Positions 2,119 to 8,235 of a DNA stretch of 64,000 nt are shown in pieces. The stretch's first letter is position 1. Every line of letters begins with the position of its first letter. The DNA lies in assembly GCA_049290235.1 (NCBI GenBank), contig JBATNG010000009.1, positions 185 through 64,184 of the forward strand, read 5' to 3'. The position numbers and the translations under genes are program-made. The stretch comes from Candidatus Moraniibacteriota bacterium (GTDB lineage: Bacteria > Patescibacteriota > Minisyncoccia > Moranbacterales > UBA1568). The notes under the pieces are model-generated. The model was not told where the DNA came from, ran no database searches, and saw nothing but the letters and a program-made list of their open reading frames with translations.

Positions 2119-2262
2119 GGAGAGAGGGTTTTTCAATGCCCGATTCACAGTTTTCAATGAAGACGAATTGAACCGATGGCCCAATCCTGCGCCTTGCTCC
2201 TGAGCTGATTCCGTGTCATACTGCTTTCGCCGTATTTGGCGTTTTCTTTTTTTCTCTCTGAC

Positions 2263-3720
2263 ATGGCCAAGGACAGCGTCGTTCTCCGATTCGACAAGGT
2301 GTCCTTTGAACACGGGCACAAGAAACCCATCCTCGATGAGGTAAGCTTTGCCGTGCGGCGGGGAGCGAAACTGACGCTCATGGGTCAGAACGGCGCGGGC
2401 AAGAGCTCGCTCTTTGGTCTCATCATGGGTGAGTCGAAGCCGACGAGTGGGCGGATTTCCATTGATCGGGATGAAGCCGTGGCGATCGGGCGTCAGACGA
2501 TACCTCGGGAGCAGCTGGACTTTACGCTTGAGCAATTCTTTCAGCAGTTTTTCCATGACAAGCAGTGGGATCTGCCCAAGCAGATTCAGGCAGTCCTAGA
2601 AATCGTGCACCTGCCGATGCCACCCTTGGATCGGACCATCCGAGAGTTCAGTGGCGGGCAGCAGGCGCGGCTCCTCCTCGCTTCGGCCTTGATCCAGAAT
2701 CCGGATATCCTCCTCCTCGATGAACCGACGAACAATCTCGACGCCGAAGGGATCGCGCATCTGACTCAATTTCTCATCGAGTATGACAAGACCGTGATCG
2801 TCATTTCCCACGATGCGGACTTTTTGAATTCGTTCACGCACGGCGTGCTGTACCTCGACATCTTCACGCACACCATCGAGCAGTACACGGGCGACTACTA
2901 CGATGTCATAGAGGAAATCGCGAAGCGCATCGCCAAGGCCGAGAGTGAAAACGTCCGTTTGGAGCGCACGATCAAGGAGAAGAAAGATCAGGCGAATGTC
3001 TTTGCCAACAAGGGTGGCAAACTCCGCGCTGTCGCCAAGCGGATGCGGACCTTGGCCGAGGATCTCGAGGAGAATAAGATGGATGTCCGCAAAGAAGATA
3101 AGACGCTGCCGGCATTTGAGATCCCAACCCGTGGCGTCGTCGGTCCGATCGTCGATATCAAAACAGTGTCGCTTATCGCACCACTCGGGGTGGCTGTGAA
3201 ACGGGTCGATCTGGTCTTGAAGAAGAATACGCATCTCCTCGTGACGGGCCCGAACGGGATCGGCAAGAGCACCTTCCTCGAGGCGCTGGCGACCGGGGAC
3301 ACGGATCGTGCCGTCATCACGCCCGGAGTGAAAGTGGGCTACTATCGGCAGGATTTCTCCACACTCGATTTCAATGAAACGGTGGCCAACACCCTCCTCG
3401 CCGTGATGGAGGAGAAGAATATCGAGCAGGCATACCGAATCGCCGCGAAATTCCTTATCCCCGCGGAACTCCTCCAGAACAAAGTCGACAGCCTATCCGA
3501 GGGGCAGAAGGGGCTCCTCATGTTCGCAAGGCTTTTCGCCGAGCGGCCGGACCTGCTCATCCTCGATGAGCCGACCAATCACATCAATTTCCGCCACTTG
3601 CCGGTGATCGCAGCGGCTCTCGACCAATACCAAGGCGCGATGATACTCGTCTCTCATGTCCCGGACTTCGTGGCGCAGATCCGGATCGACGAGGTGCTCG
3701 ACCTCGAAATCTTGCGCTGA
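2263..3720 (+). CDS. ABC-F family ATPase (two tandem ABC ATPase domains, no TMD; EttA/Uup/YheS-like translation-factor type)
   Basis: Two Walker A motifs (GQNGAGKSSL, GPNGIGKSTF), two ABC signatures (LSGGQQARL, LSEGQKGLL) and two Walker B motifs (ILLLDEPTN, LLILDEPTN) in one polypeptide. ORF-track start at 2236 is a TTG; the ATG at 2263 (MAKDSVVLRF...) gives a typical ABC-F N-terminus. Confidence 0.85.
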   Translation: MAKDSVVLRFDKVSFEHGHKKPILDEVSFAVRRGAKLTLMGQNGAGKSSLFGLIMGESKPTSGRISIDRDEAVAIGRQTIPREQLDFTLEQFFQQFFHDKQWDLPKQIQAVLEIVHLPMPPLDRTIREFSGGQQARLLLASALIQNPDILLLDEPTNNLDAEGIAHLTQFLIEYDKTVIVISHDADFLNSFTHGVLYLDIFTHTIEQYTGDYYDVIEEIAKRIAKAESENVRLERTIKEKKDQANVFANKGGKLRAVAKRMRTLAEDLEENKMDVRKEDKTLPAFEIPTRGVVGPIVDIKTVSLIAPLGVAVKRVDLVLKKNTHLLVTGPNGIGKSTFLEALATGDTDRAVITPGVKVGYYRQDFSTLDFNETVANTLLAVMEEKNIEQAYRIAAKFLIPAELLQNKVDSLSEGQKGLLMFARLFAERPDLLILDEPTNHINFRHLPVIAAALDQYQGAMILVSHVPDFVAQIRIDEVLDLEILR

Positions 3721-3874: not shown

Positions 3875-4747
3875 ATGTCAGAACAAACACCACAAGCAAG
3901 GCAGCAGTTGCTCGCTCGAGGGATAGCGGTCTTGGTGGTGGTCTCGGCTGGTGTGTTTGTGTTCTTCATCCTGCAGCCGTCTGCTCACACTGAGAGAGTG
4001 TCGGACAGCCACAGCGGGAGCGATGACGGAAACCGACACGGCTCATTCATTGACTTCATCGTTGAAGAAACGAGAGTGATCGGGGAAACAGCCCTGGAGG
4101 CAATCACCCATCCAGAGACTATCTGGACTGGGACGGGCGGTACGGGAGAGTCGGCGTACTATCGGCATGAGGATATCAGTGTGACCCTCTTCTGGGTCGG
4201 TGAACGGGCTGACGAAGACAATCAAGGTATCCCCAATCGGCGCAGTGCCTGGGACGATTCGTGGGAACAGCATTATGGCGGATTTGATGACCCCGACGAT
4301 CGGAATGCGGATTATTTTCCTGCCGGGTTCCTGCCGAAAGAGAATCCTTTTTATTTCGCTTTGCCCTACAATGATTTCGACGAAGATGGCGTGCGCCGGG
4401 CCGAAGCCTACTCGGTCGTCCCATGGGCTGGTGTGGAGACGTGGGGGGAGAAGGAATCGATGTTGAAGAATCGCTGGATCAAGATCATCAAAGGAGGGAA
4501 GGTCGCCTACGCTCAATGGGAAGATGTCGGTCCCTTTGAAGAAGACGATGCAGCGTACGTGTTTGGGACCGCTGATCCGAAGAGCGAAACGAATCAACAT
4601 GCGGGACTCGATCTCTCACCGGCCGTGAATGACTATCTCGATTTGAAGGGTGTCGACAGCGTCAGTTGGCAGTTCATTGAGGAGGCGGATGTCCCCGCTG
4701 GTCCTTGGAAGGAAGTTGTCACCCGTTCTCAAGTCACGTGGAAGTAG
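3875..4747 (+). CDS. Membrane-anchored secreted hypothetical protein (acidic, Trp/Asp-rich ectodomain)
   Basis: ORF-track ORF starts at 3656 and overlaps the upstream gene. The internal ATG at 3875 (MSEQTPQ...) is followed by a single TM helix (GIAVLVVVSAGVFVFFIL). No recognisable catalytic motif. Confidence 0.5.
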   Translation: MSEQTPQARQQLLARGIAVLVVVSAGVFVFFILQPSAHTERVSDSHSGSDDGNRHGSFIDFIVEETRVIGETALEAITHPETIWTGTGGTGESAYYRHEDISVTLFWVGERADEDNQGIPNRRSAWDDSWEQHYGGFDDPDDRNADYFPAGFLPKENPFYFALPYNDFDEDGVRRAEAYSVVPWAGVETWGEKESMLKNRWIKIIKGGKVAYAQWEDVGPFEEDDAAYVFGTADPKSETNQHAGLDLSPAVNDYLDLKGVDSVSWQFIEEADVPAGPWKEVVTRSQVTWK

Positions 4748-4800: not shown

Positions 4801-7800
4801 GTGTGGGGAGCGGAGATGACTGGATCGATTGAACGGCGTATGCAACGGAACGGAAGAGAGAAAATTTTTCACGATCAGCGAGGGATTCGGAAGCGCTATG
4901 TCGTTTCGGCAGTTTCCCTGTTCGGTTGCTTGATAGTCGGGGTGTTCAGTGTGACCGCCGTGAGCATCCTCAGGACGCCCGCCCTGCCTCCGTTGCCAGT
5001 CTCTTCAGGGGTATCCGCCGAGAGTACGGTTTCCGAGACCGTTCCCCAACCGGTTTCCCTGGTTACCCCGCCGATAGCGGCCTGGCAGCGACTCCTCACC
5101 ACCTCCACGGTAGAGCGGAATCCGGCTCAATTGTCGGAAGTGTTTGGTTTCTTCGTCAACTGGGATGACGATAGTCTCGCTTCCCTGAAGGCACATGCGG
5201 CGGTGCTGGACGGTCTCATCCCGGAATGGCTCCACCTCGCGAGCGGGACCGGGGAGGTAGTCTTGGATGATCCGGCCCGGGCACAAGAGACCCGCGAGTT
5301 CCTCGAAGCCCAAGACTATGCCCTCCCGATCTATCCATTGATCAATAATTACAATCCTCGGACTGACGGTTGGGATAGCGAGAGTCTGGTCGCGATGCTG
5401 TCTTCTCCCGACGCTCGCCACACCTTGATCGCCACACTCCTCGATTATGCCACCGCTCAGCATGCCGCCGGCATCACGATCGACTTCGAGGCGGTCCCGG
5501 ATACGAGTCAGGCGGCCCTCGTACTCTTCATGGGGGAACTGTCATCAGCATTCCACGAGAAAGACTTGAAGGTCATGCTGTGTCTCCCACTCGTCGATGA
5601 TTCATTCGATATCGCGACTTTGGCAGAGGCGAGTGACCACCTCATCCTCATGGCCTATGACGAGCATGTCCCGAGTGATTCCGTTGCCGGGCCGATTGCC
5701 TCGATGGGGTGGTATGTGAACGGGATCGCTGAACGTTTTCGTACCCTCTCGCCCGAAAAATATATCGTTGCTCTCGGGAATTACGGTTATGATTGGCCTG
5801 CTGACGGATCACCCGGCCGATCGTTGACGTTCCAGGAAGCCGTGCGTATCGCCGACAGAGCGAACCGTGCCGTGACTCTGGAGTCCGCCTCGCTCAATTC
5901 CACTTTTTCTTATTCAGGTGAATCGGGGATCGCTCATCAGGTCTGGATGCTGGATGCACTCTCAGTATTCAATCAGGTGACTAGCGCCGAAAAACTCGGC
6001 GGGACAGGGCGCTATGCCTTGTGGCGGCTCGGTTCGGAGGATCCGACGCTCTGGAATCTCTTCCAGCGTCCTCAGGTGCGAGGTCGGGCCGCGGCTGAGA
6101 AACTCAAGACGATACGCTTCAGCTATGAAGTCAGCCATGAAGGAGCTGGAGAAATCCTCCAATTGGCCGAGGCACCTCGGGCAGGGAGCCGGGATATCAC
6201 ATACGATGAGGCGACCGGACTGGTGATCGCCGAGAGCCTGACTGACTTCCCTCGCCCCTATGTCTTGAAGCGCTGGGGTGGCAATGACTCGAAGAAAATC
6301 GCGCTCACGTTCGATGATGGTCCGGACGCGACGTACACGCCAGAGATATTGGAAATCTTGAAACAGTATGATGTCCCAGCAACGTTTTTTGTCGTCGGGT
6401 TGAATGCGAGTCTGAACCCGGAGATTCTGAAAACCATCCTCCGCCAGGGGAGTGAGATCGGCAATCACACCTACACCCACCCGGACATCTCGGTCATAAC
6501 ACAAAAGCAGTTCCGTCTCGAGCTCGATACCACCGAGCGCGTCATCGAAGGGGTACTCGGGAGGAAAGCACTCCTCTTCCGGCCTCCTTACATCGAGGAT
6601 ACGGAGCCCGAGAACGCCGAAGAAGTCGGTCCGCTCATCCTCACGCATGATCTCGGATACTACACGGTCGGTTTGCATATCGATTCGAACGATTGGAGAC
6701 AACCGAGGGCGCGGATGATCGCTGATAGTGTGTTGGATCAGGCTCGGGCGGGAGCGGGTAATATCGTACTCTTGCACGATGCGGGCGGCCGGCGCGAGCA
6801 AACTGTCGCGGCACTGCCGCTCATCATCGAAGGACTGCAGGCCGATGGATTCGAAATAGTCCGGGTTTCAGAGCTGATGGGGCTCACTTCGGCGGAAGTC
6901 ATGCCACTGGTGACAGCTGATGAGAGGGCGATGTCTCATATCAATGGGCTCACTTTCCATTTCGTGAGCGCTTTCAATGTCTTCATGCGAATGATGTTTG
7001 GCATCGGGATCATTTTGGGGATCGGACGGTTTTTGATTCTCGGGTCACTTGGGTTCGGGAACACATTGAGAGCCCGTTTCATACGGAGAAGGCTTGAACG
7101 GCGTGAACAGCAGTATCATCCGACAGTGGGAGTTATTATCCCGGCGCACAATGAAGCCGGAGTGATCGTCCGGACGGTCCGTGCTGTCCTCGCTTCGGAT
7201 TACCCAGTCTCGAAGGTGATCGTCATCGATGACGGATCGACAGATCAGACCGTCGCAGTCATCCGCGCGCACTTTCCAGATGATTCCGAAATCAGCGTCA
7301 TTTCGCAGGTACATGGTGGCAAGTCGGCCGCTCTGAATCGAGGAATAGCAGAAACGACCGCTGAGATCATCGTGACTCTGGATGCGGATACACTCTTTCT
7401 CCCCGATACGATCCAGAAGCTCGTCCGGCACTTCGCTGACCGGACGGTGGGAGGGGTGTCAGGCAATACGAAAGTCGGCAACCGTCTCAATCTCCTGACA
7501 CGCTGGCAGGCGCTCGAGTATGTCACGAGCCAGAACCTGGATCGTCGCGCCTTCGAAGTGCTGAACTGCATCCCGGTGATTTCTGGCGCCGTGGGGGCAT
7601 GGCGTCGATCGGTGCTTCTCGAAACGGGGGGATTCTCGAGTGACACTTTGGCCGAAGACGCTGATGCAACGTGGAGTCTCTTGCGTTTGGGCTACCGAGT
7701 CGTGTATGAGGAGGAAGCCATGGCCTATACGGAGGCGCCCGCGACCGTACGAACCTTCATCAAGCAGCGTTTCCGTTGGGCGTACGGCACCTTTCAGACG

Positions 7801-8235
7801 GCTTGGAAACATAAGGGAGCTTTTTTCTCTGGCCCAGCGAGTGTCGGGTGGGTGGCTTTGCCGAACGTTTTCATCTTTCAAATCCTTTTTCCTCTCGTCG
7901 CCCCGATCATGGATGCGCTCTTCATCAGTTCCCTGGCGTGGTATGGCTGGCAGCAGTGGCAGCATCCGCTCACACTCCCCAGTTCTCAGGGGTTCCCCGA
8001 AGTTTTCGGTTATTATCTCTTGTTCCTGGCGATTGATTTCTTGACCGCACTCATTCCTTTTCTCTGGGAGCGTCAAGAGAGACTCAGTCTCCTCCTCTGG
8101 CTCCCGCTGCAACGATTCTCCTATCGGCAGCTCCTCTATTACGTGACCTTCAAGGCCCTGTGGGCAGCCGCCAAGGGCACTCTGACGTACTGGGGGAGGA
8201 CGGAGCGCAAAGCGACAGTAGAAGTAGGTTCCTAG
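4801..8235 (+). CDS. Tri-domain membrane protein: GH-like (beta/alpha)8 domain + CE4 polysaccharide deacetylase (NodB homology) + processive family-2 glycosyltransferase (NodC/chitin-synthase/PgaC-like)
   Basis: N-terminal TM helix. Then GITIDFE and GNYGYDW motifs reminiscent of GH18-type barrels. NodB motifs TFDDGPDATYTPEILEILKQYDVPATFFVVG ... HTYTHPD. Second hydrophobic segment (GIGIILGIGRFLILG). GT2 motifs VIIPAHNEAGVI...VIVIDDGSTDQT, LDADT, QRFRWAYG (QxxRW) and a C-terminal TM bundle. Confidence 0.75.
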   Translation: MWGAEMTGSIERRMQRNGREKIFHDQRGIRKRYVVSAVSLFGCLIVGVFSVTAVSILRTPALPPLPVSSGVSAESTVSETVPQPVSLVTPPIAAWQRLLTTSTVERNPAQLSEVFGFFVNWDDDSLASLKAHAAVLDGLIPEWLHLASGTGEVVLDDPARAQETREFLEAQDYALPIYPLINNYNPRTDGWDSESLVAMLSSPDARHTLIATLLDYATAQHAAGITIDFEAVPDTSQAALVLFMGELSSAFHEKDLKVMLCLPLVDDSFDIATLAEASDHLILMAYDEHVPSDSVAGPIASMGWYVNGIAERFRTLSPEKYIVALGNYGYDWPADGSPGRSLTFQEAVRIADRANRAVTLESASLNSTFSYSGESGIAHQVWMLDALSVFNQVTSAEKLGGTGRYALWRLGSEDPTLWNLFQRPQVRGRAAAEKLKTIRFSYEVSHEGAGEILQLAEAPRAGSRDITYDEATGLVIAESLTDFPRPYVLKRWGGNDSKKIALTFDDGPDATYTPEILEILKQYDVPATFFVVGLNASLNPEILKTILRQGSEIGNHTYTHPDISVITQKQFRLELDTTERVIEGVLGRKALLFRPPYIEDTEPENAEEVGPLILTHDLGYYTVGLHIDSNDWRQPRARMIADSVLDQARAGAGNIVLLHDAGGRREQTVAALPLIIEGLQADGFEIVRVSELMGLTSAEVMPLVTADERAMSHINGLTFHFVSAFNVFMRMMFGIGIILGIGRFLILGSLGFGNTLRARFIRRRLERREQQYHPTVGVIIPAHNEAGVIVRTVRAVLASDYPVSKVIVIDDGSTDQTVAVIRAHFPDDSEISVISQVHGGKSAALNRGIAETTAEIIVTLDADTLFLPDTIQKLVRHFADRTVGGVSGNTKVGNRLNLLTRWQALEYVTSQNLDRRAFEVLNCIPVISGAVGAWRRSVLLETGGFSSDTLAEDADATWSLLRLGYRVVYEEEAMAYTEAPATVRTFIKQRFRWAYGTFQTAWKHKGAFFSGPASVGWVALPNVFIFQILFPLVAPIMDALFISSLAWYGWQQWQHPLTLPSSQGFPEVFGYYLLFLAIDFLTALIPFLWERQERLSLLLWLPLQRFSYRQLLYYVTFKALWAAAKGTLTYWGRTERKATVEVGS

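Follow-up and report, generated by a model that had tools for sequence, protein, structure and literature searches.

A GH18-CE4-GT2 fusion protein of a Moraniibacteriota bacterium as a candidate single-polypeptide machine for a GlcNAc exopolysaccharide

A single open reading frame from a Candidatus Moraniibacteriota bacterium was found to encode a GH18 glycoside hydrolase domain, a NodB-type CE4 deacetylase and a GT2 glycosyltransferase in one chain. The frame lies at 4801..8235 (+) of a stretch of 64,000 nucleotides (GenBank assembly GCA_049290235.1, contig JBATNG010000009.1, positions 185 to 64,184), which is called the window in the following. We consider it probable, at roughly 0.68, that the protein is a synthase-dependent machine for an N-acetylglucosamine (GlcNAc) exopolysaccharide, that it stems from the PgaC/IcaA/MatB lineage and that it includes a trimming function like that of PgaB, BcsZ or PelA. 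Whereas a synthase-dependent exopolysaccharide system usually takes three to seven genes, one polypeptide would here combine synthesis, de-N-acetylation and cleavage; it is portable as a single gene and carried by at least 581 species genomes. The fusion would thus be a compact model for the coupling of modification and cleavage to polymerization, and it is a candidate for making partly deacetylated GlcNAc polymers, either poly-N-acetylglucosamine (PNAG) or chitosan-like, with a single gene.

Domain architecture and predicted topology

Residues are counted from the GTG codon at 4801, with which the longest reading of the frame begins, unless numbering from the probable start codon ATG 4816 is stated. 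An earlier sequence-only reading of this DNA had proposed three domains, and a Pfam search, judged against the gathering cut-offs, confirmed all of them. Glyco_hydro_18 (PF00704) matched residues 190-402 with 45.1 bits (cut-off 29.6), Polysacc_deac_1 residues 495-598 with 112.6 bits and Glyco_tranf_2_3 residues 774-996 with 124.5 bits, the last two likewise above their cut-offs. Several GT2 models of Pfam span residues 774-1047, with Chitin_synth_2 at 30 bits.

The order of the elements along the forward strand was derived from these matches, from hydropathy and charge counts and from an AlphaFold2 model built with 47 homologs (mean predicted local distance difference test score (pLDDT) 85, predicted template modelling score 0.64). 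A first transmembrane helix (TM1, residues ~29-57, 4885..4971; 24-52 in the model, ATG-4816 numbering for this and the following model ranges) is followed by a disordered linker (53-87) and by the (beta/alpha)8 barrel of the GH18 domain (5137..6063; 108-416). A small beta-sandwich domain (6130..6279; strands 439-488) links the barrel to the CE4 domain (6295..6900; 494-695). One long helix (6916..7113; 701-766) contains the second transmembrane segment (TM2) with a hydrophobic core at residues ~721-750 (GTG numbering), and it leads into the GT2 domain with a GT-A fold (7126..7809; 771-998). At the C-terminus the model shows three long helices (7837..8175; 1008-1120), which may lie in the membrane or at its interface, are collinear with the C-terminus of a MatB-like protein and carry the conserved motifs PN..FQ..FP..SP.MD and QRFxYRQL. 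These three helices would form the polysaccharide channel.

The N-terminal 32 residues hold 9 Lys/Arg and precede a hydrophobic helix at residues 38-56. The next hydrophobic stretch is found at 721-750, about 660 residues after TM1, and is followed by the basic stretch RARFIRRRLERRE with 7 Lys/Arg after TM2. Because of the positive-inside rule, applied to the 9 Lys/Arg and to RARFIRRRLERRE, GH18, beta-sandwich and CE4 are predicted to lie outside the membrane and the GT2 domain together with the N-terminal tail in the cytoplasm. The alternating topology that had been suggested from the letters alone is thus supported by the charge bias and by the secondary structure of the model.

Comparison of the model with the PDB using Foldseek revealed close structural relatives for the two outer domains. 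The barrel superimposes on 5jh8, a "probable chitinase" from Chromobacterium, with a TM-score of 0.88 and a root mean square deviation of 2.4 Å, and it also matches SleL and class V chitinases. Sequence searches place the GH18 part nearest to 5jh8 as well (phmmer E = 5e-24), together with YdhD, YaaH and SleL, and these results remove the doubt whether the N-terminal third is a glycoside-hydrolase-like fold. The CE4 domain was matched by sequence to PDB 7y51 and Bc1960, the latter also in Foldseek with a TM-score of 0.83; NCBIfam models agree with the assignment, and its relatives include peptidoglycan GlcNAc deacetylases and PdaB. For the synthase part, Chlorella virus hyaluronan synthase (0.5-0.62) and PcManGT were obtained.

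Conservation of the catalytic motifs

The motifs named in the sequence-only reading (TIDFE, GNYGYDW, TFDDG, HTYTH and QRFRW) were all found where it had placed them, and their invariance was assessed in alignments of 47 and 120 homologs. In the GH18 domain IDFE is located at 227, MAYD at 284 and GNYGYDW at 326, and the tryptophan of strand beta-8 is W408. The catalytic D228-x-E230 corresponds to nucleotides 5482-5490, and both acidic residues are kept in all 120 homologs. The signature G-(I/V)-x-(I/V)-D228-(F/Y)-E230, M284-x-Y-D and W408 are invariant in both alignments, so the retention of a catalytic acid, which was to be looked for in the structure, can be affirmed: D-x-E, MxYD and the beta-8 Trp are intact. 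At the two preceding Asp positions of the DxxDxDxE consensus there are Ala and Thr/Ser/Asn, as in the YdhD/5jh8 subfamily.

The CE4 domain contains the motifs MT1 to MT5 in canonical order (TFDDG 503, HTYTH 556, RPPY 594, DSNDW 628 and LLHD 657). Invariant among them are TFDDG, H556-T-x-x-H560, RPPY, D628-x-x-D-W and L-x-H659, including the residues of the Asp-His-His metal triad. The GT2 domain shows the processive motif set (D, DxD, ED, QxxRW) followed by C-terminal helices; DDGS 810, D861-A-D, AED 952 (E952-D) and QRFRW 989 (Q989-R-x-R-W) are invariant. The mean pairwise identity amounts to 0.53 for GH18, 0.52 for the beta-sandwich linker, 0.61 for CE4, 0.66 for GT2 and 0.57 for the C-terminal helices. 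Judged by these alignments, none of the domains of the fusion shows decay.

Distribution of the fusion

The same three Pfam domains were present in each of the best 120 database relatives, nearly all of which are 1030-1250 amino acids long, and more than 1600 relatives were obtained at E <= 1e-10. Scanning GTDB with one genome per species confirmed at least 581 species genomes from nine or more phyla with the same chain of about 1130 amino acids. Neighborhoods and end-to-end alignments were compared for the best 80 of these at least 581 loci, with phyla taken from the record titles: Patescibacteria, Cyanobacteria, Acidobacteriota, Actinomycetota, Chloroflexota, Planctomycetota, Verrucomicrobiota and Alpha- and Gammaproteobacteria. 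The fusion also resides on replicons of cultured Deinococcus, Sphingobium, Novosphingobium, Bacillus mycoides, Prevotella nigrescens and Sulfitobacter, where it is annotated only as "glycosyltransferase". The sequence-only reading had recommended a survey of relatives for the same fusion. Its all-in-one fusion is present, but it is not unique: the three-domain form is common in databases under generic annotation, and the two-domain CE4-GT2 form has already been characterized as MatB.

A search with the GH18 part yielded 393 clusters (50% identity) at E <= 1e-30. Among the best 150, about one in two is a full-length fusion (~1080-1250 amino acids); in most of the shorter ones the domain likewise begins about 100 residues in, and these resemble copies truncated at contig ends. 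In Bacillus anthracis, BA5436 was considered as a three-domain fusion and rejected, as it is a deacetylase of 245 amino acids; BA3480 (927 amino acids) is listed only as GT2/deacetylase.

Clustering of neighboring genes in the best 80 loci identified neither a universal neighbor nor a conserved operon. The surrounding genes are unrelated to the fusion in two other metagenomic contigs and also in Calothrix, Acidobacteria, B. mycoides and Deinococcus, where housekeeping genes lie next to it. The lack of a universal neighbor supports a self-contained function, and the self-contained machine that had been predicted from this gene fits the missing conserved neighbors in most phyla.

Relationship to characterized systems

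In BLAST comparisons the closest characterized relative of the fusion is Streptomyces MatB (SCO2962). The window protein and the MatB-type protein of S. viridifaciens share 40.5% identity over 659 amino acids (413 bits, residues 495-1137). Both combine a NodB-like extracellular CE4 domain, a single transmembrane segment, a cytoplasmic PgaC-like GT2 domain and C-terminal transmembrane helices in one chain, whereas MatB has no GH18 domain. The second component of that system, MatA, is a proline-rich membrane protein, and the MatA-like protein at one of the compared loci (L006) resembles neither the N-terminus of the window protein nor the product of the upstream gene described below. The product of MatAB was assigned as PNAG from staining with antibody F598 and from its sensitivity to dispersin B, and the product of MatB was not visibly affected by chitinase (PMC5972031). 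The CE4 domain of MatB also resembles enzymes acting on beta-1,4 substrates (PMC5972031; PMC4391728).

The GT core of the window protein is 33% identical to E. coli PgaC (127 bits), and matches were also obtained to NodC (32%, 103 bits) and NodB (36%, 117 bits); PgaC and NodC share 25% with each other (67 bits). No BLAST hit was found to PgaB, which consists of CE4 and GH153, at E = 1e-3. Among the NCBIfam equivalogs, judged against their curated cut-offs, PgaC_IcaA (TIGR03937) was the best match of the GT2 part. The MatB-like protein reaches 183 bits with this model and other fusion homologs score comparably; in some of them the model extends into the C-terminal membrane region. These scores place the fusion together with MatB, in a lineage distinct from both the PgaC/IcaA and the NodC equivalog.

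With the E. coli PgaABCD system the fusion has in common that a GT2 synthase, a CE4 de-N-acetylase and a (beta/alpha)8 hydrolase are combined. In E. coli, however, these are distributed over four proteins, and GH153 is located C-terminal to CE4 in PgaB, at the outer membrane. The resemblance to PgaB is functional only, and neither a PgaD nor a PgaA equivalent was found for the window fusion. In staphylococcal IcaADBC, too, a GT2 synthase is joined by a CE4 deacetylase that acts on a GlcNAc polymer at the cell surface, and the envelope is monoderm (PMC4391728, PMC7112194), but the system consists of separate proteins without a hydrolase and needs IcaD and IcaC. No small membrane partner of the PgaD/IcaD type is adjacent to the window fusion, whose neighbors are the partner gene and ABC transporter genes, and no IcaC homolog lies next to it. 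Functionally, the fusion would work like a fused PgaB-plus-PgaC or IcaB-plus-IcaA system.

Rhizobial NodB and NodC show the same order of a NodB-like CE4 followed by a NodC-like GT2 enzyme. They differ in being separate proteins, of which NodB is cytoplasmic, and their products are short lipo-chito-oligomers that need NodA; neither nodA nor any other nod gene context was found around the window fusion. The hyaluronan synthases of Chlorella virus and vertebrates resemble the synthase part in the GT-A domain, the interface helices and the small transmembrane channel on a single chain, but they are only 16-18% identical, make another product and lack ectodomains. The GH18 enzymes SleL, YaaH, YdhD and 5jh8 share the fold and the motifs G-x-x-(I/V)-D-F-E, MxYD and YGYDW with the barrel; in contrast to the membrane-tethered, synthase-fused GH18 domain of the window protein, they are soluble or LysM-linked stand-alone proteins. 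A survey of synthase-dependent operons noted fusions of glycosyltransferase and deacetylase and did not mention GH18 (PMC7112194).

Proposed mechanism and nature of the product

In the scheme that we propose, for which we infer the donor sugar, the product, its linkage and the role of each ectodomain, the cytoplasmic GT2 domain would polymerize UDP-GlcNAc processively and the chain would be pushed through a channel of the protein's own transmembrane helices. At the outer face the tethered CE4 domain would deacetylate the chain in part. The GH18 domain, tethered as well, would cut the chain at GlcNAc residues and thereby serve release, length control or the clearing of stalled polymer, a role for which PgaB-GH153, BcsZ and PelA are the parallels among multi-protein systems. 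In Patescibacteria the upstream gene's membrane-anchored product, with a fold that weakly resembles a double-psi beta-barrel (DPBB), would cooperate, probably by binding or cutting the same glycan.

For the linkage, beta-1,6 is somewhat favored over beta-1,4 because of the MatB precedent and the ranking of PgaC_IcaA. Several points weigh against this assignment and against the machine as a whole. The GT2 part stays far below the cut-off of PgaC_IcaA (174.5 vs 422.3 bits) and of NodC (TIGR04242; 99.6 vs 550 bits), and its BLAST distances to PgaC (127 bits) and NodC (103 bits) are nearly equal. The CE4 domain is closer to NodB, PgdA and PdaB than to PgaB, and to our knowledge every characterized GH18 enzyme cleaves beta-1,4 linkages; both make a poor fit to a beta-1,6 product. 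A PNAG product would make this domain the first member of GH18 with activity on a beta-1,6 linkage. In the diderm hosts no gene for an outer-membrane exporter was adjacent to the fusion in the loci examined, which may leave room for a periplasmic or oligomeric product. Finally, no study of the three-domain GH18-CE4-GT2 family was found in the literature searched.

The strongest alternative accepts the machine but not PNAG as its product: the protein could be a chitin/chitosan synthase, or could make partly deacetylated chito-oligomers sized by GH18, with beta-1,4 linkages. We regard this as possible rather than probable. It would account for the complete active site of the chitinase type, whose nearest structures are of the chitinase and SleL types, and for the canonical motif order of a CE4 domain that matches NodB and gives no BLAST hit to PgaB. 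The weak Pfam matches to Chitin_synth_1/2, a similarity to NodC that nearly equals that to PgaC and, in Calothrix and Brunnivagina, a GH75 chitosanase-family gene immediately upstream of the fusion point the same way. However, this GH75 neighbor occurs in only two distinct loci among the 80 examined, and PgaC_IcaA is the top model for GT2, spanning the C-terminal transmembrane region in some homologs. MatB, moreover, has the same NodB-like CE4 domain, and yet its product was sensitive to dispersin B, not visibly affected by chitinase and recognized by an anti-PNAG antibody (PMC5972031). In its fullest form, which we put forward tentatively, a one-gene chitin/chitosan machine would combine beta-1,4 synthesis, partial conversion to chitosan and cutting of the chitinase type, in Patescibacteria with a new, glycan-active partner of the DPBB type, possibly for the attachment of an epibiont to its host.

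The targets of the two ectodomains could also be sought in the cell wall instead of the nascent polymer. GH18 and CE4 would then act on the cell's own peptidoglycan and locally open or mark the wall for the passage of the polymer. The spore-cortex enzymes SleL, YaaH and YdhD are among the nearest GH18 relatives, and the CE4 domain has its nearest relatives in peptidoglycan GlcNAc deacetylases and PdaB. On the other hand, diderm and monoderm phyla, whose walls differ greatly, retain the same fusion, the tethering of two enzymes directly above a synthase channel finds its simplest explanation if they act on the emerging chain, and in the precedents MatB, IcaB and PgaB it is the polymer on which the deacetylase acts. 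We therefore consider a role in the wall unlikely.

Transglycosylation is common among GH18 enzymes and some of them are lectins without catalytic activity, so the domain might mainly anchor or retain the polymer on the cell instead of hydrolyzing it. The replacement of the second Asp of DxxDxDxE by Ser, Asn or Thr would be in line with such a function. We judge it likewise unlikely, since D-x-E, MxYD and the beta-8 Trp are invariant and the same G-x-x-I-D-F-E form is found in relatives of the SleL/YaaH type, which are active enzymes.

Integrity of the reading frame and choice of the start codon

The frame comprises 1144 codons from the GTG with zero internal stops, and the base composition of 4801-8235 is uniform with that of the surroundings. 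An independent Candidatus Moraniibacteriota contig contains a fragment of 837 amino acids with 100% identity that crosses both ~6250 and ~6900, where a frameshift or a join of separate genes had been suspected. The best 80 GTDB loci align to the query from residue 4-111 to about residue 1126-1139. An artefact by frameshift or assembly join is refuted by this fragment and by hundreds of independent full-length homologs, and the single uninterrupted polypeptide is borne out by one open reading frame and by the identical domain set of the best relatives.

The proposed length of 1144 amino acids held for the frame, and the start probably needs a small correction. The N-termini of the homologs begin a few residues ahead of a conserved "IFHD", and ATG 4816 is preceded by GGGGAG at 5 nucleotides upstream. 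Because of these two features the true start is probably ATG 4816, which would give 1139 amino acids; ATG 4840 is possibly an alternative.

The upstream partner gene

Directly upstream of the fusion lies a gene for a protein of 290 amino acids (3875..4747, +), whose N-terminal membrane helix (residues 6-32) and second helix (58-78) are followed by a conserved, beta-rich domain that comprises ~190 amino acids. It is 65% identical to the syntenic gene of L001, a Moraniibacteriota genome of ~1.2 Mb. In seven of the compared loci (L001, L010, L012, L029, L093, L095 and L096) a homolog immediately precedes the fusion on the same strand, so that with the window the pair was observed at 8 loci in at least four different neighborhoods. 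In addition, 13 exact size coincidences between the contigs of the partner-homolog and the fusion-homolog lists point in the same direction. The suggestion that the upstream gene belongs with the fusion is thus supported for Patescibacteria, where it is a conserved, real partner. That a genome of the size of L001 keeps a 3.4-kb gene and a dedicated partner suggests a role at the cell surface or in attachment to a host.

Two of the neighborhoods adjoin the EF-Tu/S10 ribosomal gene cluster. In L093 (6001-10437) it is inserted between the genes of EF-G and EF-Tu, and in L096 (3908-8360) it lies ~1.4 kb upstream of the EF-Tu and S10 genes. The Moraniibacteriota locus L010 contains two partner copies upstream of the fusion on opposite strands, at 5981-6604 (-) and 7282-7860 (+). 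The partner family has more than 3200 members, among them those at L092 (6001-6678) and L094 (6001-6666), and it also occurs away from the fusion. A protein from Marinitoga (Thermotogota) without a fusion gene nearby is ~62% identical to the partner over 200 amino acids.

Neither a Pfam match nor a match to a PDB sequence was found for the partner, and the family contains many invariant Trp, Asp and Glu residues. The AlphaFold2 model (pLDDT 84.7) consists of the membrane helix, the second helix and the beta-rich domain. Foldseek returned weak but consistent matches to kiwellin, barwin-like proteins and expansins (E = 4e-4 to 4e-2) and to cerato-platanin, which weakly suggest a DPBB-like fold of the beta domain. 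We take the invariant G-L-D-L-S-P stretch to resemble the HFD motif of expansins and GH45 enzymes. From these features we infer that the partner is a glycan-binding or glycan-cutting accessory protein, and its family is probably an undescribed family of glycan-active domains. Two other assignments were rejected. A divergent GH75 chitosanase was not supported, as BLAST and hhalign against the neighbor gene in Calothrix gave nothing and the only trace was a Foldseek match to V-Csn with E = 0.11. A counterpart of MatA, considered for the partner and for the GH18 part, was discarded because BLAST showed no similarity and the MatA-like protein is proline-rich with a single transmembrane segment.

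Other features of the genomic context

The window is syntenic with L001, in which an ABC-F ATPase gene, the gene of the 290-amino-acid protein, the fusion and convergent genes of a MacB/FtsX-type ABC transporter follow each other. In the window the ABC-F family ATPase is encoded at 2236-3720, directly upstream of the partner gene as in L001; a model for ribosomal-protection-like members scored 311 bits against a cut-off of 380 bits. A protein of 675 amino acids encoded at 91-2118 has a Big_7 Ig-like domain and weak matches to polysaccharide lyases (PL14-like), and the syntenic region of L001 also contains Polysacc_lyase- and Chondroitinase_B-like genes. These genes may represent a glycan-degrading surface repertoire beside the synthase. 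The remainder of the window consists of housekeeping genes.

At 45 of the 80 loci, mostly from Acidobacteriota, a PMT_2-like GT-C membrane glycosyltransferase of ~490 amino acids is encoded divergently from the fusion. This gene is located directly upstream on the opposite strand (L028-L089, e.g. L037 and L031:6031-7908), usually with a gap of ~30-180 bp. The GH75 chitosanase-family genes lie at 5811-6644 of the Calothrix locus (L002) and at 6756-7538 of the Brunnivagina locus (L013). On the Deinococcus plasmid the fusion is followed by a gene for a sensor diguanylate cyclase (L008:9594-11129), which hints at control by cyclic di-GMP in this lineage. In Sphingobium a BLUF blue-light sensor gene (L009:5391-5807) was found upstream of the fusion; downstream (L009:9378-12723) there are an overlapping VirJ-like gene, a gene for an MprF-like lysyl-phosphatidylglycerol synthase and a two-component system.

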